64,000 bases of DNA from Escherichia coli (GTDB lineage Bacteria > Pseudomonadota > Gammaproteobacteria > Enterobacterales > Enterobacteriaceae). The DNA is taken from assembly GCF_013315695.1 (NCBI RefSeq), contig NZ_CP054353.1. One strand, 5' to 3'. The notes below the pieces were generated by a model. It ran no database searches. It was not told the origin of the DNA and worked only from the letters and a program-made list of their open reading frames with translations. Position numbers and translations under genes: made by a program. Positions 2,286-19,723 of this stretch are shown piece after piece (the first letter of the stretch is position 1; each line of letters begins with the position of its first letter).

Positions 2286-5200
2286 ATGAAACGACATCTG
2301 AACACCAGCTACAGGCTGGTATGGAATCACATTACGGGCACCCTGGTGGTGGCCTCCGAACTGGCCCGCTCACGGGGAAAACGCGCTGGTGTGGCGGTTG
2401 CGCTGTCTCTTGCTGCTGTCACATCAGTCCCGGCACTGGCTGCTGACAAGGTTGTACAGGCGGGAGAAACCGTGAACGACGGAACACTGACAAATCATGA
2501 CAACCAGATTGTCCTCGGTACGGCCAACGGAATGACCATCAGTACCGGTCTGGAGTATGGGCCGGATAACGAGGCCAATACCGGCGGACAATGGATACAA
2601 AATGGCGGTATCGCCAACAACACTACTTTCACCGGTGGTGGTCTTCAGAGAGTGAATGCCGGAGGAAGCGTTTCAGACACGGTTATCAGTGCCGGAGGCG
2701 GACAGAGCCTTCAGGGGCAGGCAGTGAACACCACTCTGAACGGCGGTGAGCAGTGGGTACATGAAGGCGGGATTGCAACGGGTACCGTCATTAATGAGAA
2801 GGGCTGGCAGGCCATCAAATCCGGCGCAGTGGCAACCGACACGGTTGTGAATACCGGCGCGGAAGGGGGACCGGATGCGGAAAATGGTGATACCGGGCAG
2901 ACCGTCTACGGAGATGCCGTACGCACCACCATCAATAAAAATGGTCGTCAGATTGTGGCTGCTGAAGGAACGGCAAATACCACTGTGGTTTATGCCGGCG
3001 GCGACCAGACTGTACATGGTCACGCACTGGATACCACGCTGAATGGGGGGTACCAGTATGTGCACAACGGCGGTACGGCGTCTGGCACTGTTGTAAACAG
3101 TGACGGCTGGCAGATTGTCAAAAACGGGGGTGTGGCCGGGAATACCACCGTTAATCAGAAGGGCAGACTGCAGGTGGACGCCGGTGGTACAGCCACGAAT
3201 GTCACCCTGAAGCAGGGCGGCGCACTGGTTACCAGTACGGCTGCAACCGTTACCGGCATAAACCGCCTGGGAGCATTCTCTGTTGTGGAGGGTAAAGCTG
3301 ATAATGTCGTACTGGAAAATGGCGGACGCCTGGATGTGCTGACCGGACACACAGCCACTAATACCCGCGTGGATGATGGCGGAACGCTGGATGTCCGCAA
3401 CGGTGGCACCGCCACCACCGTATCCATGGGAAATGGCGGTGTACTGCTGGCCGATTCCGGTGCCGCTGTCAGTGGTACCCGGAGCGACGGAAAGGCATTC
3501 AGTATCGGAGGCGGTCAGGCGGATGCCCTGATGCTGGAAAAAGGCAGTTCATTCACGCTGAACGCCGGTGATACGGCCACGGATACCACGGTAAATGGCG
3601 GACTGTTCACCGCCAGGGGCGGCACACTGGCGGGCACCACCACGCTGAATAACGGCGCCATACTTACCCTTTCCGGGAAGACGGTGAACAACGATACCCT
3701 GACCATCCGTGAAGGCGATGCACTCCTGCAGGGAGGCTCTCTCACCGGTAACGGCAGCGTGGAAAAATCAGGAAGTGGCACACTCACTGTCAGCAACACC
3801 ACACTCACCCAGAAAGCCGTCAACCTGAATGAAGGCACGCTGACGCTGAACGACAGTACCGTCACCACTGATGTCATTGCTCAGCGCGGTACAGCCCTGA
3901 AGCTGACCGGCAGCACTGTGCTGAACGGTGCCATTGACCCCACGAATGTCACTCTCGCCTCTGGTGCCACCTGGAATATTCCCGATAACGCCACGGTGCA
4001 GTCGGTGGTGGATGACCTCAGCCATGCCGGACAGATTCATTTCACCTCCACCCGCACAGGGAAGTTCGTACCGGCAACCCTGAAAGTGAAAAACCTGAAC
4101 GGACAGAATGGCACCATCAGCCTGCGTGTACGCCCGGATATGGCACAGAACAATGCTGACAGACTGGTCATTGACGGTGGCAGGGCAACCGGAAAAACCA
4201 TCCTGAACCTGGTGAACGCCGGCAACAGTGCGTCGGGGCTGGCGACCAGCGGTAAGGGTATTCAGGTGGTGGAAGCCATTAACGGTGCCACCACGGAGGA
4301 AGGGGCCTTTATCCAGGGGAATAAGCTGCAGGCCGGTGCCTTTAACTACTCCCTCAACCGGGACAGTGATGAGAGCTGGTATCTGCGCAGTGAAAATGCT
4401 TATCGTGCAGAAGTCCCCCTGTATGCCTCCATGCTGACACAGGCAATGGACTATGACCGGATTCTGGCAGGCTCCCGCAGCCATCAGACCGGTGTAAGCG
4501 GTGAAAATAACAGCGTCCGTCTCAGCATTCAGGGCGGTCATCTCGGTCACGATAACAACGGCGGTATTGCCCGTGGAGCCACGCCGGAAAGCAGCGGCAG
4601 CTATGGCTTCGTCCGTCTGGAGGGTGACCTGCTCAGAACAGAGGTTGCCGGTATGTCTGTGACCGCGGGGGTATATGGTGCTGCTGGCCATTCTTCCGTT
4701 GATGTTAAGGATGATGACGGCTCCCGTGCCGGCACGGTCCGGGATGATGCCGGCAGCCTGGGCGGATACCTGAATCTGATACACAACGCCTCCGGCCTGT
4801 GGGCTGACATTGTGGCCCAGGGAACCCGCCACAGCATAAAAGCCTCATCGGACAATAACGACTTCCGCGTCCGGGGCCGGGGCTGGCTGGGTTCGCTGGA
4901 AACCGGTCTGCCCTTCAGTATCACTGACAATCTGATGCTGGAGCCGCAACTGCAGTACACCTGGCAGGGACTCTCCCTGGATGACGGCCAGGATAACGCC
5001 AGTTATGTGAAGTTCGGGCATGGCAGTGCACAACATGTGCGTGCCGGTTTCCGTCTGGGCAGCCACAACGATATGACCTTTGGTGAAGGCACCTCATCCC
5101 GTGACACCCTGCGCGGCAGTGCCAAACACAGTGTGCGTGAACTGCCGGTGAACTGGTGGGTACAGCCTTCTGTTATCCGCACCTTCAGCTCCCGGGGGGA

Positions 5201-5405
5201 CATGAGCATGGGTACAGCCGCAGCCGGCAGTAACATGACGTTCTCACCGTCACAGAATGGTACGTCACTGGACCTGCAGGCCGGACTGGAAGCCCGTGTC
5301 CGGGAAAATATCACCCTGGGCGTTCAGGCAGGTTATGTCCACAGCGTCAGCGGCAGCAGCGCTGAAGGCTATAACGGTCAGGCCACGCTGAATGTGACCT
5401 TCTGA
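2286..5405 (+). CDS. flu: Antigen 43 self-associating autotransporter
   Basis: 1039-aa product from MKRHLNTSYRLVWNHITGTLVVASELARS..., extended signal peptide, Gly/Thr/Asn-rich beta-helix passenger, C-terminal beta-barrel ending ...LNVTF. Confidence 0.92.
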   Translation: MKRHLNTSYRLVWNHITGTLVVASELARSRGKRAGVAVALSLAAVTSVPALAADKVVQAGETVNDGTLTNHDNQIVLGTANGMTISTGLEYGPDNEANTGGQWIQNGGIANNTTFTGGGLQRVNAGGSVSDTVISAGGGQSLQGQAVNTTLNGGEQWVHEGGIATGTVINEKGWQAIKSGAVATDTVVNTGAEGGPDAENGDTGQTVYGDAVRTTINKNGRQIVAAEGTANTTVVYAGGDQTVHGHALDTTLNGGYQYVHNGGTASGTVVNSDGWQIVKNGGVAGNTTVNQKGRLQVDAGGTATNVTLKQGGALVTSTAATVTGINRLGAFSVVEGKADNVVLENGGRLDVLTGHTATNTRVDDGGTLDVRNGGTATTVSMGNGGVLLADSGAAVSGTRSDGKAFSIGGGQADALMLEKGSSFTLNAGDTATDTTVNGGLFTARGGTLAGTTTLNNGAILTLSGKTVNNDTLTIREGDALLQGGSLTGNGSVEKSGSGTLTVSNTTLTQKAVNLNEGTLTLNDSTVTTDVIAQRGTALKLTGSTVLNGAIDPTNVTLASGATWNIPDNATVQSVVDDLSHAGQIHFTSTRTGKFVPATLKVKNLNGQNGTISLRVRPDMAQNNADRLVIDGGRATGKTILNLVNAGNSASGLATSGKGIQVVEAINGATTEEGAFIQGNKLQAGAFNYSLNRDSDESWYLRSENAYRAEVPLYASMLTQAMDYDRILAGSRSHQTGVSGENNSVRLSIQGGHLGHDNNGGIARGATPESSGSYGFVRLEGDLLRTEVAGMSVTAGVYGAAGHSSVDVKDDDGSRAGTVRDDAGSLGGYLNLIHNASGLWADIVAQGTRHSIKASSDNNDFRVRGRGWLGSLETGLPFSITDNLMLEPQLQYTWQGLSLDDGQDNASYVKFGHGSAQHVRAGFRLGSHNDMTFGEGTSSRDTLRGSAKHSVRELPVNWWVQPSVIRTFSSRGDMSMGTAAAGSNMTFSPSQNGTSLDLQAGLEARVRENITLGVQAGYVHSVSGSSAEGYNGQATLNVTF

Positions 5406-5519
5406 CAGAACCATCGCCTCTCTGTGGTCCCGGTCATCATGATCGGGACCCGGACCGGCGCAACGGATATTCAACGCCACATTCGCTGGCATTAACAATA
5501 ACATGATATTCATCACGGA

Positions 5520-8042
5520 GTGACTATGTTACAGATAGTCGGCGCGCTGATCCTGCTGATCGCAGGATTTGCCATTCTTCGCCTTTTGTTCAGAGCATTA
5601 ATCAGCACGGCTTCTGCGCTGGCAGGGCTCATATTGCTGTGTCTGTTCGGCCCGGCCTTACTGGCTGGCTATATCACCGAACGCATAACCCGGTTGTTCC
5701 ATATTCGCTGGCTGGCAGGCGTATTTCTGACGATTGCCGGAATGATCATCAGCTTCATGTGGGGACTTGATGGTAAACATATCGCGCTGGAGGCTCACAC
5801 CTTTGACTCTGTGAAATTTATTCTGACCACCGCTCTCGCCGGTGGTCTGCTGGCTGTTCCCCTGCAGATCAAAAACATTCAGCAGAACGGGATCACACCA
5901 GAAGATATCAGCAAGGAAATTAACGGGTATTACTGCTGTTTTTATACTGCCTTTTTCCTTATGGCGTGTTCTGCATGCGCACCATTGATCGCGTTACAGT
6001 ACGATATTTCACCGTCACTGATGTGGTGGGGCGGGTTGTTGTACTGGCTGGCTGCATTAGTGACGCTGCTATGGGCGGCCAGCCAAATCCAGGCGCTGAA
6101 AAAACTGACCTGTGCCATCAGCCAGACACTGGAAGAACAACCGGTGCTCAACAGTAAATCGTGGCTGACCAGTTTGCAAAACGATTACAGCCTTCCTGAC
6201 TCACTGACGGAGCGCATCTGGCTGACGCTCATTTCTCAACGGATTTCCCGGGGAGAACTGAGGGAATTTGAACTGGCAGACGGAAACTGGCTACTGGACA
6301 ATGCCTGGTATGAAAGAAACATGGCGGGTTTCAACGAAAAGCTGAGAGAGAGCCTGTCATTTACCCCTGATGAACTGAAAACCCTCTTCCGGAACCGCCT
6401 GAATTTATCACCGGAAGCGAATGACGATTTTCTCGATCGTTGCCTGGACGGCGGTGACTGGTACCCCTTTTCAGAAGGTCGCCGTTTTGTATCATTCCAT
6501 CACGTGGATGAGCTTCGTATCTGTGCCTCCTGCGGGCTGACAGAAGTACATCATGCCCCGGAAAATCATAAGCCGGATCCGGAATGGTACTGCTCCTCTC
6601 TTTGTCGCGAAACAGAAACACTGTGTCAGGAAATTTATGAACGCCCTTACAACAGCTTTATTTCCGATGCAACGGCGAATGGTCTGATTCTCATGAAACT
6701 GCCGGAAACCTGGAGTACAAATGAGAAAATGTTTGCTTCCGGAGGGCAGGGACATGGGTTTGCCGCTGAACGGGGAAACCATATTGTCGACAGAGTCCGT
6801 CTGAAAAACGCACGGATCCTCGGTGATAATAATGCCAGAAATGGAGCAGACAGACTGGTCAGCGGAACAGAAATCCAGACGAAATATTGTTCAACTGCAG
6901 CCCGTAGCGTCGGTGCGGCATTCGACGGACAAAACGGACAGTATCGTTACATGGGAAATAATGGCCCCATGCAACTGGAAGTCCCCCGTGATCAGTATGC
7001 CGGCGCTGTTGAAACCATGAGGAATAAGATCCGCGAAGGTAAAGTACCCGGTGTAACCGATCCCGCAGAAGCGTCCAGGCTGATTCGTCGGGGACATCTG
7101 ACTTATACCCAGGCCCGTAATATCACCCGGTTCGGGACCATCGAATCGGTCACTTATGATATTGCCGAGGGTTCGGTTGTCAGTCTGGCGGCCGGAGGGA
7201 TCAGTTTTGCCCTGACGGCATCGGTCTTCTGGCTCAGCACCGGCGATCGCGATGCTGCCCTGCAGACAGCTGCTGTCCAGGCAGGAAAAACCTTCACCCG
7301 CACACTGGCTGTCTACGTCACAACCCAGCAACTCCACCGGCTCAGTGTTGTTCAGGGTATGCTGAAGCACATTGATTTTTCGACTGCCAGCTCGACTGTC
7401 CGACTGGCTCTTCAGAAGGGGACCAGTGCAGGAAATATCAGTGCCCTGAACAAAGTGATGAAGGGTACGCTGGTGACATCTCTGGCACTGGTAGCTGTCA
7501 CAACCGGCCCTGACATGATCAAAATGTTGCGGGGACGGATCTCCGGTACGCAGTTCATCAGGAATCTTGCCGTGGCATCTTCCGGTGTGGCAGGTGGTGC
7601 TGTCGGGTCAGTGGCGGGCGGAATACTGTTCAGTCCACTGGGACCATTTGGTGCACTGACAGGGCGTGTGGTTGGCGGTGTTCTGGGGGGAATGATTGCC
7701 TCCGCTGTATCAGGAAAAATTGCCGGAGCGCTGGTTGAAGAAGATCGCGTCAAAATTCTGGCAATGATTCAGGAGCAGGTGACATGGCTTGCCGGCAGTT
7801 TCCTGCTGACCGGACATGAGATTGAAAATCTGAACGCGAATCTGGCCCGTGTTATCGATCAGAATGCTCTGGAGATCATTTTCGCCGCCGGTATACAACA
7901 ACGGGCCGCGACCAATATGTTAATCAAACCACTGGTGGTCAGTATCATCAGGCAACGCCCCGTCATGGAATATGATGCATCCCATCTCGGCAATATGGTT
8001 AACCGACTGGAAGAAGCATTACCCCCGGAGTTACCGGCATAA
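5520..8042 (+). CDS. YeeR-like inner membrane protein (island-encoded, unknown function)
   Basis: 840-aa ORF with N-terminal hydrophobic segments, Cys-rich CASCGLTEVHH...WYCSSLC motif and C-terminal Gly-rich hydrophobic region; position after flu as in CP4-44. Confidence 0.6.
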   Translation: MTMLQIVGALILLIAGFAILRLLFRALISTASALAGLILLCLFGPALLAGYITERITRLFHIRWLAGVFLTIAGMIISFMWGLDGKHIALEAHTFDSVKFILTTALAGGLLAVPLQIKNIQQNGITPEDISKEINGYYCCFYTAFFLMACSACAPLIALQYDISPSLMWWGGLLYWLAALVTLLWAASQIQALKKLTCAISQTLEEQPVLNSKSWLTSLQNDYSLPDSLTERIWLTLISQRISRGELREFELADGNWLLDNAWYERNMAGFNEKLRESLSFTPDELKTLFRNRLNLSPEANDDFLDRCLDGGDWYPFSEGRRFVSFHHVDELRICASCGLTEVHHAPENHKPDPEWYCSSLCRETETLCQEIYERPYNSFISDATANGLILMKLPETWSTNEKMFASGGQGHGFAAERGNHIVDRVRLKNARILGDNNARNGADRLVSGTEIQTKYCSTAARSVGAAFDGQNGQYRYMGNNGPMQLEVPRDQYAGAVETMRNKIREGKVPGVTDPAEASRLIRRGHLTYTQARNITRFGTIESVTYDIAEGSVVSLAAGGISFALTASVFWLSTGDRDAALQTAAVQAGKTFTRTLAVYVTTQQLHRLSVVQGMLKHIDFSTASSTVRLALQKGTSAGNISALNKVMKGTLVTSLALVAVTTGPDMIKMLRGRISGTQFIRNLAVASSGVAGGAVGSVAGGILFSPLGPFGALTGRVVGGVLGGMIASAVSGKIAGALVEEDRVKILAMIQEQVTWLAGSFLLTGHEIENLNANLARVIDQNALEIIFAAGIQQRAATNMLIKPLVVSIIRQRPVMEYDASHLGNMVNRLEEALPPELPA

Positions 8043-8117
8043 CGGCTATTCTGCGCCTTTTACGCTTTATCACCTGATTTGTCAGTGTCATCGTCATGAC
8101 TCAGAGAGGTAAATACC

Positions 8118-8573
8118 ATGATTCACCTGTTCAAAACCTGCATGATTACCGCCTTCATTCTGGGGTTAACGTGGTCTGCCCCACTCCGGGCACAGGATCA
8201 ACGTTACATCAGTATACGCAATACAGATACGATATGGCTCCCGGGAAATATTTGTGCTTACCAGTTCCGGCTGGATAATGGCGGAAACGATGAAGGATTT
8301 GGCCCCCTCACCATCACTCTGCAACTCAAAGACAAATATGGTCAGACGCTGGTGACCAGAAAAATGGAAACGGAAGCTTTTGGTGACAGTAATGCCACGC
8401 GAACCACAGACGCATTTCTGGAAACGGAGTGCGTGGAAAATGTCGCCACAACCGAAATCATCAAAGCAACTGAAGAAAGTAACGGCCATCGTGTCAGTCT
8501 GCCGTTATCGGTTTTCAATCCCCAGGACTACCATCCACTGCTGATTACCGTTTCCGGAAAAAACGTTAACTGA
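8118..8573 (+). CDS. hypothetical exported protein (signal peptide)
   Basis: 151-aa ORF with N-terminal hydrophobic leader MIHLFKTCMITAFILGLTWSAPLRA; island context. Confidence 0.5.
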   Translation: MIHLFKTCMITAFILGLTWSAPLRAQDQRYISIRNTDTIWLPGNICAYQFRLDNGGNDEGFGPLTITLQLKDKYGQTLVTRKMETEAFGDSNATRTTDAFLETECVENVATTEIIKATEESNGHRVSLPLSVFNPQDYHPLLITVSGKNVN

Positions 8574-8651
8574 TCCCTGAAGTCAGTTTCATGCTTCAGC
8601 CTCTGTCACAACGCGTGGCAGAGGCTTTTTATTTATCAGGAGAAAACAGAT

Positions 8652-8885
8652 ATGCCGGGTTACACAGAGTATGTCCTGGCTGAAGGATCTTTCTCATACG
8701 GGCAGGCGGTTGCTGTCATAACCGCTTACCGCAATGTGTTTATCCAGGATGACCCGGGAATGCATTTCCGTCGGGTTATCCGCAACGCGGAAGGTCAGCG
8801 ACGCTGGCGCTGCCGGAATTCTGAACCCGATGCCGGAAAGGTGCTTAATACGCGGCTCGCCAGTGACGGTCTTCTCAGACAATAA
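8652..8885 (+). CDS. small hypothetical protein (possibly DUF905/YkfF-like)
   Basis: 77-aa ORF in the usual position of a small conserved gene upstream of the DUF932 gene; identity not verified. Confidence 0.3.
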
Positions 8886-8984
8886 ACGTCATTCATTTCA
8901 CCCATCAGGCCGCGTCTTCTCCGGGAGACGTGGCTTTTTCATTTATTACACCAGTAAATCTTAACCACCGATAAGGAGCAAATT

Positions 8985-9803
8985 ATGCGACTAGCCAGTC
9001 GTTTTGGTTATGCGAACCAGATACGCCGTGACCGTCCGCTGACACACGAAGAACTGATGCACTATGTGCCGGGGATTTTCGGGGAAGATAAACACACGTC
9101 CCGAAGCCAGAACTATACGTACATCCCCACCATCACCGTACTGGAAAGCCTGCAGCGGGAAGGCTTTCAGCCATTCTTCGCCTGCCAGACCCGCGTACGT
9201 GACCCGGACCGCCGGGAATACACCAAACACATGCTGCGTCTGCGGCGGGCCGGAGAGATAACCGGACAACATGTCCCTGAAATCATTCTGCTCAACTCCC
9301 ATGACGGTACCTCCAGCTACCAGATGCTGCCGGGTTACTTCAGGTTCGTCTGCCAGAACGGATGCGTCTGTGGTCAGTCTCTGGGGGAAGTGCGTGTTCC
9401 GCACCGGGGAAATGTGGTGGACAGAGTCATTGAAGGGGCTTACGAGGTGGTGGGCGTGTTTGACCGGATTGAGGAAAAGCGTGATGCCATGCAGTCGCTG
9501 ATTCTGCCGCCACCGGCACGCCAGGCGCTGGCACAGGCGGCACTGACTTACCGTTATGGTGACGAACATCAGCCCGTCACCACCGCCGACATTCTGACGC
9601 CACGACGCCGGGAGGATTACGGTAAGGACCTGTGGAGTGCTTATCAGACCATTCAGGAGAATATGCTTAAAGGCGGAATTTCAGGTCGCAGCGCTAAAGG
9701 AAAACGTATCCATACCCGTGCCATTCACAGCATTGACACTGACATTAAGCTCAACCGCGCATTGTGGGTGATGGCGGAAACCCTGCTGGAGAGCCTGCGC
9801 TGA
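8985..9803 (+). CDS. DUF932 family protein (YafZ/YfjQ-like)
   Basis: 272-aa ORF; size and order (before anti-restriction and RadC genes) match the CP4-type module. Confidence 0.7.
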   Translation: MRLASRFGYANQIRRDRPLTHEELMHYVPGIFGEDKHTSRSQNYTYIPTITVLESLQREGFQPFFACQTRVRDPDRREYTKHMLRLRRAGEITGQHVPEIILLNSHDGTSSYQMLPGYFRFVCQNGCVCGQSLGEVRVPHRGNVVDRVIEGAYEVVGVFDRIEEKRDAMQSLILPPPARQALAQAALTYRYGDEHQPVTTADILTPRRREDYGKDLWSAYQTIQENMLKGGISGRSAKGKRIHTRAIHSIDTDIKLNRALWVMAETLLESLR

Positions 9804-9857
9804 TTCAGCCATTACCCTGAAAACCACGCATTTATTTGTCCTTTAAGGAGTCATTTC

Positions 9858-10343
9858 ATGAAAACCATTTCACATAATTCCACCACATCTTCTGTTTCCG
9901 TAACCGCTGCATCAGGGAATGACCAGCCTCAGTTGGTTGCCACCCTCGTCCCTGATGAACAGCGCATCAGCTTCTGGCCGCAGCACTTTGGCCTCATTCC
10001 ACAGTGGGTGGCCCTGGAGCCCCGTGTCTTCGGCTGGATGGACCGTCTGTGTGAAGACTACTGCGGTGGTATCTGGAATCTGTACACCCTGAACAACGGC
10101 GGGGCATTTATGGCACCCGAACCGGATGACGATGATGACGAAACATGGGTACTGTTCAATGCCATGAACGGTAACCGCGCTGAAATGAGCCCGGAAGCCG
10201 CCGGCATTGCCGCCTGTCTGATGACGTACAGTCATCACGCCTGCCGTACGGAGTGTTATGCCATGACGGTTCATTATTACCGTCTGCGGGACTACGCCCT
10301 GCAGCATCCGGAATGCAACGCCATTATGCGCATCATCGACTGA
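9858..10343 (+). CDS. anti-restriction protein (ArdB/KlcA-like, YfjX/YafX family)
   Basis: 161-aa ORF with acidic stretch PEPDDDDDETW; conserved position upstream of RadC-like gene. Confidence 0.7.
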   Translation: MKTISHNSTTSSVSVTAASGNDQPQLVATLVPDEQRISFWPQHFGLIPQWVALEPRVFGWMDRLCEDYCGGIWNLYTLNNGGAFMAPEPDDDDDETWVLFNAMNGNRAEMSPEAAGIAACLMTYSHHACRTECYAMTVHYYRLRDYALQHPECNAIMRIID

Positions 10344-10358
10344 ATGGAGAGAAGTACA

Positions 10359-10835
10359 ATGCAACAGCTTTCCTTTCTGCCCGGAGAGATGACGCCCGGC
10401 GAGCGCAGCCTCATTCAACGGGCCCTGAAAACCCTGGACCGCCATCTTCATGAACCCGGCGTGGCCTTCACCTCCACCCGTGCGGCACGGGAATGGCTGA
10501 TTCTGAACATGGCGGGACTGGAGCGTGAAGAATTCCGGGTGCTGTATCTGAATAACCAGAATCAGCTGATTGCCGGTGAAACCCTCTTCACCGGCACCAT
10601 CAACCGCACGGAAGTCCATCCCCGGGAAGTGATTAAACGCGCCCTGTACCACAATGCCGCTGCCGTGGTGCTGGCACACAATCACCCGTCCGGTGAAGTC
10701 ACACCCAGCAAGGCAGACCGCCTTATCACGGAACGTCTGGTACAGGCACTGGGCCTGGTGGATATCCGGGTGCCGGACCATCTGATAGTCGGTGGCAGCC
10801 AGGTTTTCTCCTTTGCCGAACATGGTCTGCTTTAA
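10359..10835 (+). CDS. RadC-like JAB/JAMM domain protein (YeeS/YkfG/YfjY family)
   Basis: Translation contains HNHPSG JAMM motif (VLAHNHPSGEVTPS); start taken at MQQLSFLPGEM. Confidence 0.85.
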   Translation: MQQLSFLPGEMTPGERSLIQRALKTLDRHLHEPGVAFTSTRAAREWLILNMAGLEREEFRVLYLNNQNQLIAGETLFTGTINRTEVHPREVIKRALYHNAAAVVLAHNHPSGEVTPSKADRLITERLVQALGLVDIRVPDHLIVGGSQVFSFAEHGLL

Positions 10836-13316: not shown

Positions 13317-13704
13317 CATCGTATGCAAATCGAGTCGCTCAAGGGCGGCTTTTTTTGTACCTGTGTTTTCACTACTTTGTTTGCATGTAACGCTGATAAT
13401 CTAAGAACTTCGGAAGCCCCATTTCCATCAATGATGTTCATTCATCATCCTGAAAATTAAGTAGATATAAAACTTCATTGCCTTGGTCTAATGGCACAGA
13501 AATAGATTGCATTTGGCGAGTGGCATTCTTAGTGCGTCGTTGTTTAGTCATGAAACGATGCGTAAAATTGCTGATTTTATGTGTCAAAGTCCCGCAACCG
13601 GAGATGGCCTTACTTCAATGATCAACCACTATTGACGTATCCTTTTAATATCTTGATTCAATTCAGCAGGTTATCGTCCAAAGTACAGCGAAGAGAGAGA
13701 AAAG

Positions 13705-16596
13705 ATGATTGGTACAACACCTTATCATGCGAAATATTTTGCGCATGAACTTTCCATTCTTCATTCAAACAATGGGGTGGACCGTCTGTCTCAATCGCTG
13801 TTTGATGCAAGCGTAGATCTAAACCCTCATCAAATTGAGGCGGCTCTTTTTGCTATCGAAAATCCGCTAAGCAAAGGTGTTGTGCTTGCCGATGAAGTTG
13901 GTTTGGGTAAAACCATTGAAGCTGGACTAGTGCTTTGCCAGTTGTGGGCTGAAAGAAAACGTAAACTGTTGATCATTTGTCCTGCTTCACTGCGTCGCCA
14001 ATGGGCGAGCGAGTTACAGGAAAAGTTCAATCTACCTTCTCAGGTGTTGGACGCGAAAATGTATAGCCAGCTTCAAAAAGAAGGGATCCATAATCCCTTA
14101 AATAATAAATCGATCACTATTATGTCATACCACTATGCTGCTCGGTTAGAAGAGAAATTGGTGGCTGAAATGTGGGATCTGGTTGTTATCGACGAAGCCC
14201 ATAAACTGCGTAATGCTCATCGAGAAAGCAACAAAATGGGGCAAGCGTTAAAGCGTGCGCTTGATGGGCGGAAGAAATTACTACTGACCGCAACGCCTTT
14301 ACAGAACTCGTTGATGGAACTGTATGGCATGTCGACGCTTATAGATGAACATACCTTCGGCGAAGTTAAAGCGTTCAGAAAGCAATATATGCAGGCAGAT
14401 AGCGATATTGCGGAGTTGAAGGGGCGATTGTCGCGTTTTATCAAACGAACTCTACGCAAGAATGTGCTGGAGTATATCAAGTATACAGAACGTAAAGCGA
14501 TCACTATTCCTTTCTATCCGAGCGAACAGGAGCAGGATCTTTATGAACGCGTACAAAAATTGCTTGAACGTGAGGATAGCTATGCCTTACCAAAACGACA
14601 CCGGCATCTGACGGGGCTTATACTCAGAAAACTACTTTCCTCAAGTACGAAAGCCGTATTGAATAACTTGCAGATCCTTAAGACTCGTTTAGAAAGGTTA
14701 AAGCTGGAAGGTATCGTTGAAGATGATATGGACATCATCCAACAGATCATAATGGATGATGATCTTGAAGATGACATCGTTGAAGATGCCGAATCAGTAG
14801 CGCCAGATACAGAGTGCAAATCTGTGGATTCAGATGCGCTTCAGGCAGAAATCAATGAGCTGGAATCACTCATTGTTAAAGCAGAACAGATTGGCACTGA
14901 TACCAAATCAAAAGAGTTGCTTTCTGGCCTGGAGCAAGGTTTTGCACAGCTTGCCGAAATGGGGGCTGCAAAAAAAGTCATCATCTTCACGGAGTCGATG
15001 CGAACTCAACAGTACCTTGCACATTTTCTGGAAAACAATGGCTACCAGGGAAAAGTAGTAACCTTTAGTGGCACAAACAATACACCGCAGGCAAACAAGA
15101 TCTACCAGCAATGGCGCGAGGAATATCAGGGATCTTCTCGTATTACCGGGTCGGCGCAAATTGATAAACGCTCGGCTTTGATCGACCACTTCAAAGATCA
15201 TGCTGAAATCATGATAGCTACAGAAGCTGCAGCTGAAGGGGTGAACCTGCAATTTTGTTCGCTACTGATCAATTACGATTTACCCTGGAACCCACAACGC
15301 ATTGAGCAGCGTATTGGACGTTGTCACCGATACGGGCAAAAATTTGATGTGGTTGTTATTAACTTCCTCAATCAGCGAAACCAGGCCGATCAACGCGTTC
15401 TTGAACTCTTAACTGAAAAGTTCAGCCTGTTTGATGGCGTGTTTGGCGCATCGGATAGTGTGCTTGGCAGCATAGAAAATGGTGTGGATTTTGAAAAAAG
15501 GATCCAGTCAATTTATGAGTCATGCCGTACCCCCGAGGAGATAGAGCTGGCTTTTGAAAGGTTGCAGAAAGAGCTGGAAGATGAAATCAATCTCAAGATG
15601 CAGAAGACGCAAGAACAGTTGCTTGAGCATTTTGATGAAGATATTCACGATATCCTTAAAATAAGGCTTGATGAAGCTCGGGAGCGCCTGGATAAAGTCG
15701 GTCGTTGGTTTTGGGCCGTGACCTGTCAGCAGCTCAAACAATATGCTGATTTTGATCATGAGCATCATCGTTTCACTTTACGTGAATCAGTCAATGAACT
15801 GCCTGTCGGGCAGTACCAGCTGTTGCGCAAAGATGGCAGGCAAAATAGTGCGTTACAAATGCAGGATCACCACAGTTTTGCATATCGGATCAATCATCCA
15901 CTGGGTGAGTACGTCATTGACGGAGCCAAAGCCCAGGAGACGAAAACAGCTGAAGTCATCTTCGATTACAGTAACCACACAACGAAAGTTTCGGTGGCTG
16001 AGCAGCTGAAAGGGCAATCAGGATGGTTAACACTAAATTTGCTTACTGTTGATGCGTTTAACAGGCAGCAATTTTTAGTCTTTACCGCGAAAACTGACAA
16101 CGGACGTGTGGTAGATGGTGAAGCTTGTAAACGTCTGTTCAACTTGTCTGCAATAACCAACGAAAAGCTGGATAATTCGGCAAGTTTAGATGCATTACCT
16201 GATGACTTGATCTTACTCAAGAACAGGCAAATTGACGCCAGGCTTGCAGAAGTTTTGGAGCAGAACAATGTCCTTTTTGAAGCGGAAAGAGATAAGCTGG
16301 AAAAATGGGCTGAAGACATGATCTTTGCGGCGGAAGAAGCATTACGCGATACCAAAATGCAAATCAAGTCGTTGAAGCGAGAAGCCAGGCTGGCGCAATC
16401 GATCGAAGAACAAAAGCAAAACCAGGAAAAGCTTAAGCTCCTGGAACGGCAGCAGAAGCGCCAACGTATGGAAATTTTTGACATTGAAGATGAGATCGCC
16501 GACAAGCGGGATGAACTCATCAGTGCCCTTGAAGAGCGGATGAAGCAAAAGACGGATATCACCGAGCTGTTTACCATCCGCTGGAAAGTTATTTAA
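13705..16596 (+). CDS. SNF2-family helicase-like ATPase with C-terminal coiled-coil region
   Basis: Motifs in translation: LADEVGLGKTIEAG (Walker A), VVIDEAHKLRN (DEAH-like), LLLTATPLQN, INYDLPWNPQRIEQRIGRCHRYGQ (motifs V-VI); C-terminal ~350 aa rich in E/K/Q heptad-like repeats. Strong RBS aagagagagaaaag before ATG. Confidence 0.85.
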   Translation: MIGTTPYHAKYFAHELSILHSNNGVDRLSQSLFDASVDLNPHQIEAALFAIENPLSKGVVLADEVGLGKTIEAGLVLCQLWAERKRKLLIICPASLRRQWASELQEKFNLPSQVLDAKMYSQLQKEGIHNPLNNKSITIMSYHYAARLEEKLVAEMWDLVVIDEAHKLRNAHRESNKMGQALKRALDGRKKLLLTATPLQNSLMELYGMSTLIDEHTFGEVKAFRKQYMQADSDIAELKGRLSRFIKRTLRKNVLEYIKYTERKAITIPFYPSEQEQDLYERVQKLLEREDSYALPKRHRHLTGLILRKLLSSSTKAVLNNLQILKTRLERLKLEGIVEDDMDIIQQIIMDDDLEDDIVEDAESVAPDTECKSVDSDALQAEINELESLIVKAEQIGTDTKSKELLSGLEQGFAQLAEMGAAKKVIIFTESMRTQQYLAHFLENNGYQGKVVTFSGTNNTPQANKIYQQWREEYQGSSRITGSAQIDKRSALIDHFKDHAEIMIATEAAAEGVNLQFCSLLINYDLPWNPQRIEQRIGRCHRYGQKFDVVVINFLNQRNQADQRVLELLTEKFSLFDGVFGASDSVLGSIENGVDFEKRIQSIYESCRTPEEIELAFERLQKELEDEINLKMQKTQEQLLEHFDEDIHDILKIRLDEARERLDKVGRWFWAVTCQQLKQYADFDHEHHRFTLRESVNELPVGQYQLLRKDGRQNSALQMQDHHSFAYRINHPLGEYVIDGAKAQETKTAEVIFDYSNHTTKVSVAEQLKGQSGWLTLNLLTVDAFNRQQFLVFTAKTDNGRVVDGEACKRLFNLSAITNEKLDNSASLDALPDDLILLKNRQIDARLAEVLEQNNVLFEAERDKLEKWAEDMIFAAEEALRDTKMQIKSLKREARLAQSIEEQKQNQEKLKLLERQQKRQRMEIFDIEDEIADKRDELISALEERMKQKTDITELFTIRWKVI

Positions 16597-16616
16597 TTGA
16601 TTTGAAAGAGAAAATA

Positions 16617-19600
16617 ATGAGTAAGTACAACGAATTAGTTAAGAAGCTAAAAGAAATTTTTCAGATTGATCGACCAGAACTGGATTTCGGTATTTATCGT
16701 ATTTTAAATGCGCGTGCTGATGAAATTAACGACTATCTGGATAATAAGCTGAAGGCCAAAATCCAGTCTGCGCTGGCGGATGCAGGAAATGCCAATAAAT
16801 CAGAATTAGAACATCAGTTGCAACTGACAATAAAAGCGGCAACTGATGCGGGTGTAGACCCTGCTGATAGCCCAAAAGTACAGGAGCTTAAAAAGCAACT
16901 GGCGGCTATGGCATCCGGAGCAAATGAGCATGAAAATGCAGTATTTTCCCATCTGCTCACTTTCTTTTCGCGTTATTATGACAACGGCGATTTTATCAGC
17001 AAACGCCGTTATAAAGGTAATACCTACGCCATCCCCTATTCTGGCGAAGAAGTGATGTTGCACTGGGCAAATAAGGACCAGTACTACATTAAAAGCGGTG
17101 AAAACTTCGCTAATTATTCGTTCAAATTAGAAGACGGTCGTAAAGTTAGCTTTAAATTGCTCGCAGCGGACACAGCAAAAGATAACCGTAAAGATAATGA
17201 ATTAGATCGCTGCTTTGTACTTATTGAGCCACATGTTCGTACCAAAATTGATGAAGAAGGCGATGAGTACGAACAAGAATATAAGCCAGTAGAAGTGGTG
17301 AAAAACTCATCTGTGGTGGACGGTAAACTCGTTGAAACAGAAGAGTTAGTTATTCACTTCGAATATAAGGCAATGAAAAAGGGCACTAAGCAGGATGCTT
17401 TAGTACAGTCCGCCATTTCAACAATTCTGGCAGATAAAACAGTTCAACAGCATTGGGTTGATCTTGCTAAACGTGCGCCAACAGAAAAGAATCCGTCACG
17501 TACAGAGTTGGAGCGTCACCTTACAACTTATACCCAGCGTAATACAGCAGACTACTTTATCCATAAAGATCTCGGTGGTTTTTTAACGAACGAACTGGAT
17601 TTTTATATTAAAAATGAAGTAATGAATCTCGATAATGTGCAAAATGCAGAAGTGTTTGCCAATGTTGAGAAACAATTGCGCATGATTCAATGTTTGCGTG
17701 CTGTTGCGCTGGAACTCATTACATTTTTGGCACAAATTGAGAATTTCCAGAAAAAACTTTGGACTAAGAAGAAGTTTGTTGTTGGGCATGAGTATCTTGT
17801 GTCACTTTCAAATCTATCAGATTCGCTTTACGATAAAATTCGAACTAATAAAGGGCAACATGATGAATGGGTTGAGCTTTATGCTGTAAATAAAATTCCT
17901 GGATATTCATTTCCATTCACAAAAGATTTCTTGTATAAAAATAATGGTATGATATTGGATACAAAATATTTTGATCCGTCATTTAAGGAGGTTTTTTTAA
18001 CAGAGTTAACTAATGTTGACGATAATTTAGATGGTCTCTTAATTAATTCAGATAATTATCAGGCCATTAATTTTTTGGAGGGGCGGTATAAGGACTCAAT
18101 AGACTGTCTTTATATTGATCCTCCGTATAATACTGCGGCTTCAGAAATTTTATATAAAAATGAATATAAGCACAGCAGCTGGAATTCATTAATGTATGAA
18201 AGGATATCTAAAAGCTATAATTTACTGAAAATTTCTGCAATTAATTTTACCGCGATAGATCATGCGGAATTATATAATCTTGGTAAGATCAAGGATGAAA
18301 TCTATGGAGAACAAAACAGGATAGCAGTTGTTACTGTTCAGCATAATCCTAAAGGGCGTAACCAGGCAAAGTTCTTTTCTGAAAATACTGAGTATATGTT
18401 AGTATATGCTAAAGATTTTAATGCTGCTAACTTTAACTCTGTAGCTATCGATGAGGATGTGCTTTTAACATTCACAGAACAAGATAATATAGGCCGTTAT
18501 CGTTGGGAAAACTTTATTCGTGCAAGAACAAGTTGGTCCAGAGCAAATAGACCAAATAACTGGTATCCTTTATACGTCTCTTCCGACTTAAAATCAATTT
18601 CTGTTGATTATGTAGATGGGTATATCGAAGTATATCCTACAACTAAACAGGGGGATTTTTCGTGGAAAAATATTAAAGAATCATTTGTTGAATTAAATAA
18701 AGATAATTATTTTAAAGCTGTAAATGAAAATGGAGAAATAAAAATCTATCATAAATATAGGGAGCAGCAAGTCTTTAAAAATCTTTGGATTGATAAGAAA
18801 TATCAGTCTGAGTTTAATGGTACAAATTTACTGAAAAACATACTTGGACAATCACTATTTGATTATCCGAAATCATTATATGCAGTACAAGATGCAATCA
18901 AAATGTCGACACCACACAATGGTATTGTATTGGACTATTTTGCAGGTTCAGGGACAACTTCTCATGCAGTAATAAACCTTAATAATTCAGATAATCTCTG
19001 TATGAAATTTATCAATGTTGAAATGGGTACTCATTTCAATACAGTAGTTATTCCAAGATTGAAGAAAATTGGATATTCAAACTTATGGAAACAATGTAAA
19101 CCAATCGGTAAACCTCAAAAAATGACTATCAAGTATTTGAAACTTGAAAGTTATGAGGATGCTCTTAATAATATACAATTACGAAGTTATTCATTGCATC
19201 AGGATATTTTCGACATTTTGGTGGAAGATGTAAAATCAGAGTTTGCTCTTAAATATATTTTTGAAAATGAATTATTTTATTCACTATTAAATACTGATAA
19301 TTTCAAAAAACCATTTAACTACGAAATGGATATTGCGACGGATTCCGCCGGTGCCACTGAGCGTAAAAACATCGATTTAGTTGAAACTTTCAATTATCTC
19401 ATTGGCTTACATGTGAAATCCATCGAATCTGATATCGCACGTGGCTATGTGCGTATTGAAGGAACGCTGCCAACAGGCGAGCGTACCCTTATTCTGTGGC
19501 GCGATTGCGACAAGATCGGTTATGAAGAATTGAATAAATATGCCAACCGATTTGATTTGTATGCAAAAGAAAACACGTTCGACGTTATCTACATCAATGG

Positions 19601-19721
19601 CGATCATAACTTACCTACCGCCTTTACCGTTGATGAAGAAGACGGCGAGATTGTTCGTAGCCTGAAAATTCGCCAGATCGAACCTGAATTCTTGAACCTG
19701 ATGTTTGCGGAGGAGGTTTAA
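16617..19721 (+). CDS. Mod-like amino-methyltransferase (beta-class, DPPY) with ~500-aa N-terminal domain of unknown function
   Basis: ORF 16602..19721; preferred start ATG 16617 (RBS gaaagag). DCLYIDPPYN (motif IV) precedes VLDYFAGSGTTSHAV (motif I) by ~270 aa, the order seen in Type III Mod enzymes. Stop overlaps SD of next gene. Confidence 0.85.
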   Translation: MSKYNELVKKLKEIFQIDRPELDFGIYRILNARADEINDYLDNKLKAKIQSALADAGNANKSELEHQLQLTIKAATDAGVDPADSPKVQELKKQLAAMASGANEHENAVFSHLLTFFSRYYDNGDFISKRRYKGNTYAIPYSGEEVMLHWANKDQYYIKSGENFANYSFKLEDGRKVSFKLLAADTAKDNRKDNELDRCFVLIEPHVRTKIDEEGDEYEQEYKPVEVVKNSSVVDGKLVETEELVIHFEYKAMKKGTKQDALVQSAISTILADKTVQQHWVDLAKRAPTEKNPSRTELERHLTTYTQRNTADYFIHKDLGGFLTNELDFYIKNEVMNLDNVQNAEVFANVEKQLRMIQCLRAVALELITFLAQIENFQKKLWTKKKFVVGHEYLVSLSNLSDSLYDKIRTNKGQHDEWVELYAVNKIPGYSFPFTKDFLYKNNGMILDTKYFDPSFKEVFLTELTNVDDNLDGLLINSDNYQAINFLEGRYKDSIDCLYIDPPYNTAASEILYKNEYKHSSWNSLMYERISKSYNLLKISAINFTAIDHAELYNLGKIKDEIYGEQNRIAVVTVQHNPKGRNQAKFFSENTEYMLVYAKDFNAANFNSVAIDEDVLLTFTEQDNIGRYRWENFIRARTSWSRANRPNNWYPLYVSSDLKSISVDYVDGYIEVYPTTKQGDFSWKNIKESFVELNKDNYFKAVNENGEIKIYHKYREQQVFKNLWIDKKYQSEFNGTNLLKNILGQSLFDYPKSLYAVQDAIKMSTPHNGIVLDYFAGSGTTSHAVINLNNSDNLCMKFINVEMGTHFNTVVIPRLKKIGYSNLWKQCKPIGKPQKMTIKYLKLESYEDALNNIQLRSYSLHQDIFDILVEDVKSEFALKYIFENELFYSLLNTDNFKKPFNYEMDIATDSAGATERKNIDLVETFNYLIGLHVKSIESDIARGYVRIEGTLPTGERTLILWRDCDKIGYEELNKYANRFDLYAKENTFDVIYINGDHNLPTAFTVDEEDGEIVRSLKIRQIEPEFLNLMFAEEV

Positions 19722-19723
19722 GA

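Follow-up and report, generated by a model that had tools for sequence, protein, structure and literature searches.

SNIPE, the described system whose logic comes closest to that of the protein analyzed here, is a single protein in which a transmembrane (TM) helix, the DNA-binding domain DUF4041, and a GIY-YIG nuclease are combined; it cuts phage DNA during injection and turns toxic when untethered (bioRxiv 10.1101/2025.11.03.685801). YeeR has been described from another side, as the product of the middle gene in the operon formed by agn43, yeeR, and irmA. The three genes were found on one transcript by reverse transcription PCR and under OxyR control (PMC4807369), control of yeeR by OxyR was also reported elsewhere (PMC8614746), and a separate irmA promoter lies downstream of yeeR in strain 042 (PMC9431211). 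Release of IrmA was independent of YeeR, which was termed uncharacterised (PMC4807369), yeeR is disrupted in K-12 (PMC4807369, PMC6480617), and yeeR and irmA have been linked with hha paralogues (PMC6480617). In the literature searched, neither a function for YeeR nor a link to defense was found. Here, we analyzed a 64,000-nucleotide stretch of Escherichia coli DNA (contig NZ_CP054353.1 of assembly GCF_013315695.1; hereafter the window), which carries a full-length yeeR gene. Based on structure prediction and residue invariance, we propose, with a probability of roughly 0.45, that YeeR is a membrane-tethered nuclease of the PD-(D/E)xK type that has DNA-binding-like modules on the cytoplasmic side and serves mobile elements against incoming DNA. 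Already known are the gene, the name of its family, the operon, and the K-12 truncation; what appears to be new, judged by the literature searched, is the domain reading, in which a predicted nuclease-like core carries an invariant E/D/QxK/E signature and is obligately linked to a membrane module with a glycine zipper, N-termini are swappable, and Sel1/WYL partners occur. The gene and the domain that carries this proposal are located as follows, with the ATG at 5526 taken as residue 1 in all amino acid (aa) numbers:

5526..8042, + strand: yeeR coding sequence, 838 aa plus stop, full length (open reading frame, Shine-Dalgarno sequence, annotated start, homologue lengths, dN/dS)
6717..7169, + strand: nuclease-like domain, predicted PD-(D/E)xK-type fold, aa 398-548 (H410, E415, [A/P]-D442, Q451-x-K453, E485)

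The segment aa 398-548 is the best-conserved part of YeeR. The model of the isolated domain, obtained with 35 sequences, had a predicted local distance difference test score (pLDDT) of 86 and a predicted template modeling score (pTM) of 0.83, and its elements were ordered as helix, three strands, helix, strand, and helix; up to the fourth strand, this predicted order matches the canonical core of the PD-(D/E)xK superfamily. In the model, helix 1 holds E415, D442 opens strand 2, strand 3 contains Q451-x-K453, and strand 4 contains E485; by secondary-structure element, E415, D442, and Q451-x-K453 are thus predicted to sit at the canonical PD-(D/E)xK catalytic positions. When 299 distinct domain sequences from many phyla were compared, D442, Q451, and E485 were present in all of them, E415 and K453 in 298, and H410 in 293. 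The residue preceding D442 was A in 249 sequences and P in 49, and a sixth of the family reads 'PD...QxK'. The arrangement D...QxK is the Mrr/MspJI variant of PD-(D/E)xK. E. coli Mrr reads GDGGIDGV...VYVQAKRW, and the GxD...VQAKR pattern is alike by eye. YeeR resembles the nucleases of this variant in the predicted core topology, the helix-1 acid, the [A/P]D, the QxK, and the strand-4 E, and it differs from the superfamily in that its domain sits between membrane modules, which is unusual there.

The domain model was matched to N.BspD6I (score 5.7), a XisH-like protein (5.5), the Upx restriction endonuclease (5.3), Burkholderia CdiA-CT (5.2), Hjc (5.2), HamA of the Hachiman system (5.1), NucS (5.1), VRR_NUC (5.1), and MspJI (5.0). 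Just below were FokI, NgoMIV, LlaBIII, YaeQ, Cap4, BglII, and others, and the unrelated folds of FleN and methionine synthase domains fell in the same range. The Foldseek search with the same model placed PspGI, CdiA-CT, Hjc, VRR_NUC, and I-Ssp6803I on top, with E values of 0.3-1, which are not significant. From the model, we consider it likely that aa 398-548 has a restriction-endonuclease fold; that the domain is an active nuclease is also predicted, with less assurance.

On both sides of this domain, the protein is made up of the following parts, where AF2 is the AlphaFold model and Cys stands for cysteine:

5526..6095, + strand: N-terminal membrane domain, about six hydrophobic helices, aa 1-190 (hydropathy of the protein and family profile)
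6123..6509, + strand: two winged-helix-like units, tentative, aa ~200-328 (AF2 helix-helix-hairpin at 210-258 and 281-323, pLDDT ~90)
6510..6641, + strand: predicted four-Cys zinc-knuckle module, C333-x2-C336 ... C356-x3-C360, aa 329-372 (invariant Cys; AF2)
7170..7535, + strand: helical module CT1, aa 549-670 (hydropathy; hydrophobic helices at 549-570 and 643-661; AF2 pLDDT 70-80)
7536..7745, + strand: glycine-zipper hairpin, aa 671-740 (conserved glycines; hydropathy; AF2)
7746..8039, + strand: C-terminal helical module CT2, aa 741-838 (AF2 helices 738-831; conserved to about aa 815; in most family members)

The full-length AF2 model was built from an 84-sequence alignment and had a mean pLDDT of 79. 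Conservation was lowest in the first 300 residues (0.28-0.45), with aa 1-190 as the least conserved part, and highest at aa 400-815 (0.5-0.8). Helices were modeled in the N-terminal membrane domain at 2-57, 61-82, 93-108, 129-159, and 163-204. An earlier note on this DNA, made by a model that read the letters and the open reading frames, had called the product a membrane protein, to be examined by topology prediction; the N-terminal hydrophobic helices and the glycine hairpin agree with this, and the winged-helix-like units and the nuclease-like domain had been overlooked. Foldseek of the full model against the PDB gave nothing significant by E value, and its only matches to winged-helix structures were weak, i.e., the tandem winged-helix unit of ESCRT-II (probability 0.98, E 0.12), SelB, BlaI/MecI, and MarR. 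The cysteine cluster that the note had pointed out is real: C333, C336, C356, and C360 were invariant in a set of 24 and in the set of 84 sequences, and C367 was nearly invariant. In the model, a beta-hairpin (330-341) bears the CxxC and the second pair lies where a helix (358-372) begins, and we read the module as a predicted zinc knuckle of the treble-clef type. Both sequence strings quoted in the note occur in the translation, CASCGLTEVHH...WYCSSLC at aa 333-360 and SSGVAGG...GKIAG at aa 685-734. CT1 follows the nuclease-like domain in the family members that were scanned with hidden Markov models (HMMs) of the segments.

When loop charges were averaged over the family, the loops at 51-60, 114-135, after 186, and 662-682 were rich in K+R, and those at 82-93 and 159-163 were poor in them. 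Taken with hydropathy, this fits an N-in topology with aa 190-548 in the cytoplasm, a placement that the four-Cys zinc site also suggests, and the glycine zipper would then be a hairpin with both ends inside.

The glycine-zipper hairpin consists of two hydrophobic helices (683-703 and 708-732) separated by a 4-residue turn, with pLDDT below 50, and its glycines G690/694/698/699/706/713/717/718/721 were invariant or nearly so among the 84 sequences. The only Pfam hit in the whole protein was to C19orf12 (PF20721), at 16.8 bits and below the cut-off of 30, no match was found in NCBIfam for the whole protein, and relatives gave weak matches to Gly-zipper_YMGG and DUF1269, again below the cut-offs. 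With C19orf12-like, YMGG/Rick_17kDa-type, and DUF1269 proteins and with tape-measure segments, YeeR shares GxxxG-type repeats in two adjacent hydrophobic helices; these proteins are devoid of the YeeR nuclease-like domain, and all the matches, being below cut-offs, are probably compositional. As to the glycine-zipper pore of the earlier note, the conserved glycine-rich segment stood, and the pore was not supported, given the family matches below thresholds and the low pLDDT; the segment could equally be a membrane-anchoring hairpin. PHROGs gave for the whole protein only a weak tape-measure match, phrog_167 (E 1e-3), driven by the glycines (window 7578-7727, aa 685-734), and in the PDB profile search the glycine segment matched the tape-measure chain 9ki1_g (E 5e-4); this likeness is probably compositional. 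Tape-measure segments insert into the inner membrane during DNA injection. SNIPE contacts the tape measure, so the tape-measure likeness of YeeR is worth mention.

The same segment is central to the main rival explanation, abortive infection, where the nuclease-like domain, the winged-helix-like units, and the zinc knuckle would sense foreign nucleic acid and the glycine zipper would oligomerize and permeabilize the inner membrane. The zipper is conserved and almost never separate from the domain, it has the weak likeness to C19orf12 and, in relatives, to Gly-zipper_YMGG and DUF1269, the conflict-system context described below would serve this explanation as well as ours, and the ExK motif, with Q where D/E is usual, may point to binding without catalysis. 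However, five canonical catalytic-type positions invariant over 299 sequences are more than binding alone usually requires, and the zipper matches all fell below family thresholds in a region of low pLDDT. We regard abortive infection as unlikely, and keep the tethered nuclease as the preferred reading.

In the mechanism proposed for such a nuclease, the active site would be formed by E415 / D442 / Q451-x-K453 / E485, a D...QxK variant as in Mrr-like enzymes, as suggested by the predicted structure and the invariant residues. Hydropathy and loop charges would place the soluble modules (winged-helix-like units, zinc knuckle, and nuclease-like domain) on the cytoplasmic side, where six N-terminal helices before them and the glycine-zipper hairpin behind them would anchor them to the membrane, and DNA would be acted on at its inner face. 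The tether would keep the nuclease off the chromosome, and recognition may be provided by the N-terminal DNA-binding-like units or, in other family members, by Sel1/TPR partners. The most likely role would be in defense or exclusion, with YeeR as a factor that mobile elements carry and that acts against phage or conjugative DNA entering the cell. Since agn43 is phase-variable and yeeR shares its transcript, only Ag43-ON cells of E. coli would produce YeeR.

SNIPE shares with YeeR this proposed logic of an inner-membrane nuclease with a DNA-binding region, a cytoplasmic catalytic domain, a single gene, and a location in variable regions. The parts are unrelated: one TM helix, DUF4041, and GIY-YIG in SNIPE versus about six TM helices, winged-helix-like units, a zinc knuckle, a PD-(D/E)xK-like domain, and a glycine-zipper hairpin in YeeR, where neither Pfam nor PADLOC gave a match to DUF4041 or GIY-YIG. 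The function of SNIPE has been demonstrated, that of YeeR is a prediction, and we regard the link as a functional analogy and not as membership. If the defense reading holds, SNIPE would be joined by a second, structurally unrelated case in which location serves for 'self/non-self discrimination', a function would be gained for a family found in many phyla, and Ag43 phase variation would seem to switch resistance to foreign DNA as well. If it fails, yeeR is an ordinary, already catalogued island membrane protein. The named catalytic residues make the tethered-nuclease prediction concrete to mutate.

The reality and extent of the gene were supported by several observations. The frame is open without interruption on the + strand from 5520 to 8042, and the earlier note had counted 840 aa from the GTG at 5520. 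The Shine-Dalgarno sequence GGAG (5517-5520) overlaps this GTG and ends 5 nucleotides (nt) before the ATG at 5526, the start chosen by the Prokaryotic Genome Annotation Pipeline in a 99.3% identical DNA copy ('YeeR family protein') is ATG 5526, and the N-terminus 'MLQI...' read from it is common to homologues; therefore, the start is probably ATG 5526, the GTG lying 2 codons too early, and the length was corrected to 838 aa. Among three E. coli alleles, dN/dS was about 0.2, with values of 0.17-0.34 for four regions taken singly, which speaks for a working gene under purifying selection and not a chance frame. The description as a YeeR-like island protein was borne out, since near-identical copies are annotated as 'YeeR family protein' or 'hypothetical protein', and the gene is island-borne and its product contains hydrophobic helices. 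Precomputed matches to PF27347 (YeeR_C) exist for a 98% identical cluster representative and more than 100 homologues; the Pfam copy used for direct scans did not contain this model.

A search of 5.8 billion proteins returned 401 homologues, most of them of 805-850 aa, and those from Gamma- and Betaproteobacteria were 30-68% identical over the full length (Enterobacter, Serratia, Pseudomonas, Shewanella, Vibrio, Methylomonas, Dyella, Stenotrophomonas, Cupriavidus, Bordetella, Herbaspirillum, and others). The seven segment HMMs were found in the same order in homologues of 805-856 aa from many genera. The note had proposed that the length be compared with homologues, and that homologues revealing a fusion artefact of two genes would speak against its description; no such artefact was seen, and with equal length and architecture in many genera it was ruled out. 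The shorter forms, i.e., 512-aa fragments, chimeras with RadC (658 aa) and with DUF932 (687 aa), and a pseudogene of the type found in sequence type 131 (ST131), are deletion products.

A profile search with the domain alone reached further, to 1,025 clusters (50% identity) at E<=1e-3, 561 of them below 1e-30, and a scan of one genome per species yielded 315 relatives. When 126 diverse representatives were scanned with HMMs of the seven YeeR segments, the commonest architecture, in 50 of the 126, was nuclease-like domain-CT1-glycine zipper-CT2 preceded only by a short N-terminal leader; the full YeeR order was present in 15, nine had the winged-helix, zinc, nuclease-like, and C-terminal parts without the N-terminal TM block, and further architectures add Sel1 or TPR repeats. 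The nuclease-like domain was almost never apart from the glycine-zipper module, and the N-terminus was the variable part; the two modules together thus look to be the ancestral unit. The full YeeR type was mostly confined to Proteobacteria, with forms of about 786 aa also in two Lentisphaerota metagenome-assembled genomes, and the short core type was found in Lachnospiraceae, Oscillospiraceae, Clostridium, Selenomonas, Phascolarctobacterium, Bacillus, Paenibacillus, Campylobacter, Riflebacteria, Coriobacteriia, and others. It is conceivable, and to our judgment doubtful, that the nuclease-like and glycine-zipper unit defines a large class of membrane-tethered nuclease immunity proteins which would destroy invading DNA at entry, with about 1,000 clusters, interchangeable sensors (the TM, winged-helix-like, and zinc modules of YeeR, Sel1/TPR proteins as partners or fusions elsewhere, and an N-terminus of the BnzA type in one variant), and WYL tuning, and which in pathogenic E. 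coli would be phase-variable via the Ag43 switch, so that the aggregation and biofilm state would be linked to resistance against foreign DNA.

The neighborhoods of core-type genes, counted from crude gene calls, contained recurring partners. A Sel1/TPR protein was located immediately downstream in 8 loci and 2 more from metagenomes, a WYL-WCX regulator upstream on the same strand in 8 loci, an XRE-type HTH protein in 7 loci, a TerB-like protein in 3 loci, and two small proteins without known identity in 9 and 7 loci. WYL-WCX regulators of the BrxR/CapW type are typical of defense operons. On two metagenomic contigs, the Sel1 gene (620-800 aa) directly follows the short YeeR_C core, with overlapping stop in one (L015, 244-3836) and a 5-nt gap in the other (L009, 8001-12097), and in some species Sel1 repeats are fused to the N-terminus of the YeeR_C core, a Rosetta-stone link. 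These arrangements suggest that the Sel1 gene and the YeeR_C core form a two-component system. Two of the Sel1 proteins had a short, weak match to the N-terminus of PtuA (E 1e-6 to 1e-5).

Mobile elements carry the core type as well. In the lactococcal conjugative dairy plasmid pNCDO184A (L097, 5161-9780), an IS6 transposase, a WYL gene, a 665-aa 'glycine zipper family protein' (YeeR_C core), and a hypothetical gene lie together, another IS6 copy is located at 13605-14279, an Abi gene lies a few kb downstream, and bacteriocin genes are near; this WYL and YeeR_C cassette looks like mobile defense cargo, and it is not mentioned in the lactococcal defensome paper. Among 50,697 phage records, one copy was found, a 650-aa gene of the Oscillospirales phage PV036458 (L098, 5401-7353), which follows directly on the endolysin and precedes a DNA invertase, as is typical for morons. 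A phage or plasmid origin as a general rule was ruled out, with this single phage record and a handful of true plasmids.

Outside E. coli, YeeR-type genes occur without a conserved neighbor, and several adjoin toxin-antitoxin pairs (RES/Xre, HicAB, or HepT/MNT), insertion sequence (IS) elements, or a CAP12-type TIR protein. Among 116 neighbors from 15 species, PADLOC assigned two proteins each to DndG, mad6/mad7 of MADS, MkoA, GajB-like helicases, PD-T4-6-like kinases, and WYL, and the same set also held aldehyde dehydrogenases, TonB receptors, LysR regulators, and gyrase. In a 924-aa variant, residues 12-141 match the BnzA N-terminal domain of the Bunzi anti-phage system (E 2.6e-13), and the TM block otherwise found there is missing. 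The PADLOC model PDC-M09B matched the protein studied here with E values of 3e-6 and 2e-5 over partial stretches, in both the nuclease-like and the glycine-zipper parts, and it was matched by 9 of 24 YeeR-type proteins, with a best E of 1e-10. Profile positions ~65-203 align with the nuclease-like part and ~252-403 with the helical and glycine-zipper part; PDC-M09B is about 480 aa long, lacks the N-terminal 400 aa of YeeR, and belongs to a two-gene system with gene A. By annotation, the yeeR neighbors in E. coli are agn43 and irmA, and gene A was not seen there, the PDC-M09A model not having been run on them; this model matched one of the 24 YeeR-family proteins weakly (E 5e-4) and had no match in two scanned Sel1 neighbors of core-only members. 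No text on PDC-M09 was found in the literature searched. The match indicates distant homology, not membership.

Several results weigh against the tethered nuclease, and part of them also bear on whether the nuclease assignment is wrong, so that the domain would act at the membrane on a substrate other than nucleic acid, as an enzyme of another kind or as a binder. Pfam found no nuclease family in the whole protein or in 35 isolated domains at E<=10, and PDB profile searches with the whole-protein and the domain alignments returned no nuclease, only the tape-measure glycine stretch and noise. Comparison of the domain alignment with E. coli Mrr by hhalign gave a probability of 1.6%, and that of a 313-sequence domain alignment with a 120-sequence Mrr alignment of low diversity (75-100% identity) gave 0.1%. 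The glutamine stands in for the usual D/E of the ExK motif, and the domain could bind nucleic acid without cutting. A wrong assignment would account for sequence-profile searches that gave no nuclease support; yet the invariant residues fall exactly on the catalytic positions of the superfamily, and the adjoining winged-helix-like and zinc-knuckle modules are typical nucleic-acid binders, so we hold such an error to be quite unlikely. The other points concern membrane and context. The topology was drawn from hydropathy and charge only, and the strongly positive aa 571-642 fits poorly as a periplasmic loop between the helices 549-570 and 643-661. Other YeeR-type genes lie among housekeeping genes, no conserved partner gene for the YeeR type was found in 15 species, and the defense-neighbor counts were not set against a background rate, so no enrichment is claimed. 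PDC-M09 itself is a candidate only, chosen by 'guilt by embedding', i.e., a copy inside a known defense system. Finally, yeeR was less than 80% present in about 30% of the E. coli carrier genomes, and a gene truncated in so many carriers is dispensable in culture-adapted and many natural strains.

As a separate matter, membership in the Mrr-like branch (Mrr_cat, PF04471) was considered and rejected, the profile comparison being not significant; a permissive alignment paired D442/Q451/K453 with the Mrr D/Q/K, without statistical support.

The setting of yeeR in the window is that of an island, with these features around it:

2286..5405, + strand: agn43 (Ag43 autotransporter), upstream gene (annotation of near-identical copies)
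8118..8573, + strand: irmA (IrmA family protein), downstream gene (open reading frame and annotation)
7047..10382, no strand: segment deleted in K-12, 3,336 bp, with one end within yeeR and the other within radC/yeeS (K-12 locus aligned to the window by blastn)

After irmA follow DUF905, DUF932, an antirestriction gene, RadC/JAB, DUF987, a YeeU/CbtA toxin-antitoxin pair, DUF5983, and DUF957, and we read the yeeR locus as a CP4-44-type island backbone, here inserted beside nan and fim genes. Among 5,426 complete E. coli genomes, a yeeR match was present in 2,584, nearly half, and at least 80% of the gene in 1,798, often in several copies, at up to six places per genome, and inside a well-studied virulence-associated operon. 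Such a setting could mean that YeeR serves island maintenance or transfer, acting on island DNA at the membrane or excluding related elements as part of the backbone. In E. coli, yeeR always lies within this backbone (GTPase, DUF932, antirestriction, RadC, toxin-antitoxin), it may recur at as many as 6 places, and the backbone has DNA-entry-related genes, including the antirestriction and the RadC/JAB genes. Outside Enterobacteriaceae, however, yeeR is alone, without the backbone genes, the core module occurs in Firmicutes with different partners, and the gene is rare on true plasmids. The islands CP4-6 and CP4-57, which we take to be related E. coli islands with the backbone and without agn43-yeeR, also count against this role, and we judge it very unlikely.

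The operon raises the further alternative that YeeR is an accessory membrane protein of a phase-variable surface program, for Ag43 or IrmA, in envelope remodeling or stress in aggregates, and that its domain is a degenerate scaffold. Co-transcription with agn43 and expression dependent on OxyR/Dam (PMC4807369, PMC8614746) speak for it, as do the linkage of yeeR and irmA with hha paralogues (PMC6480617) and our scan of the sequence between agn43 and yeeR, in which no terminator-like site was found; promoter-like sites inside yeeR were consensus matches only. Nevertheless, IrmA is released without YeeR or Ag43 (PMC4807369). Homologues of Pseudomonas, Dyella, Methylomonas, and Deefgea have no autotransporter neighbor, and the catalytic-type residues are invariant and not degenerate. 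K-12, moreover, presumably has a functional Ag43 despite its truncated YeeR, and this explanation appears to us highly improbable.

The K-12 deletion was mapped by blastn: the alignment stops at window position 7046 and restarts at 10383 inside radC/yeeS. The earlier note had suspected a full-length version here of a gene truncated in K-12, and these breakpoints agree with it; the truncation was already published. K-12 has lost YeeR aa 508-838, irmA, DUF905, DUF932, the antirestriction gene, and the 5' end of radC/yeeS. Its DNA is 99% identical over the first 1,647 bases of a query that began 120 bases upstream of GTG 5520, and its yeeR, annotated with 510 aa and abutting yeeS, corresponds to aa 1-507 plus junction codons and ends 12 nt past the junction. 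The K-12 product (b2001; CP4-44 prophage 'inner membrane protein YeeR') is from the same gene, and it is devoid of the end of the nuclease-like domain and of the whole glycine-zipper module; therefore, results obtained with K-12 say little on the intact protein.

A second, independent form of yeeR decay was observed in several ST131 genomes (NZ_CP018979; L101, 1595-2728), as a pseudogene without the N-terminus that covers about 48% of the query in two pieces. In three Enterobacter and Serratia loci, a conserved same-strand trio (~300, 281, and 483 aa) precedes yeeR in place of agn43, its 483-aa member having no Pfam match, and in Cupriavidus and Bordetella yeeR is preceded by a conserved 412-aa gene without Pfam matches. 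Farther along the window, a low-GC block (0.32-0.45) spans 13705-23104 on the + strand with open reading frames at 13705-16596, 16602-19721, and 19724-23104, annotated in 100% identical genomes as SNF2-related protein, site-specific DNA methyltransferase, and DEAD/DEAH helicase, and beyond them lie remnants of a phosphorothioated-DNA-binding restriction endonuclease and an HNH gene. This block, about 6 kb away from yeeR, looks like a restriction/defense module at the distal end of their common island, and at least 80% of it was present in only 148 of the 5,426 E. coli genomes. In the fimB/fimE region (~28750-30430), the closest annotated genome, 99.7-100% identical over the two stretches compared, has a fimB pseudogene with an internal stop, and the window's open reading frame at fimB is 161 aa (28752-29237) versus an annotated fimB coding span of 603 nt (~200 codons). 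Further along from this region are an IS1 pair and a DUF2686 gene that is truncated.

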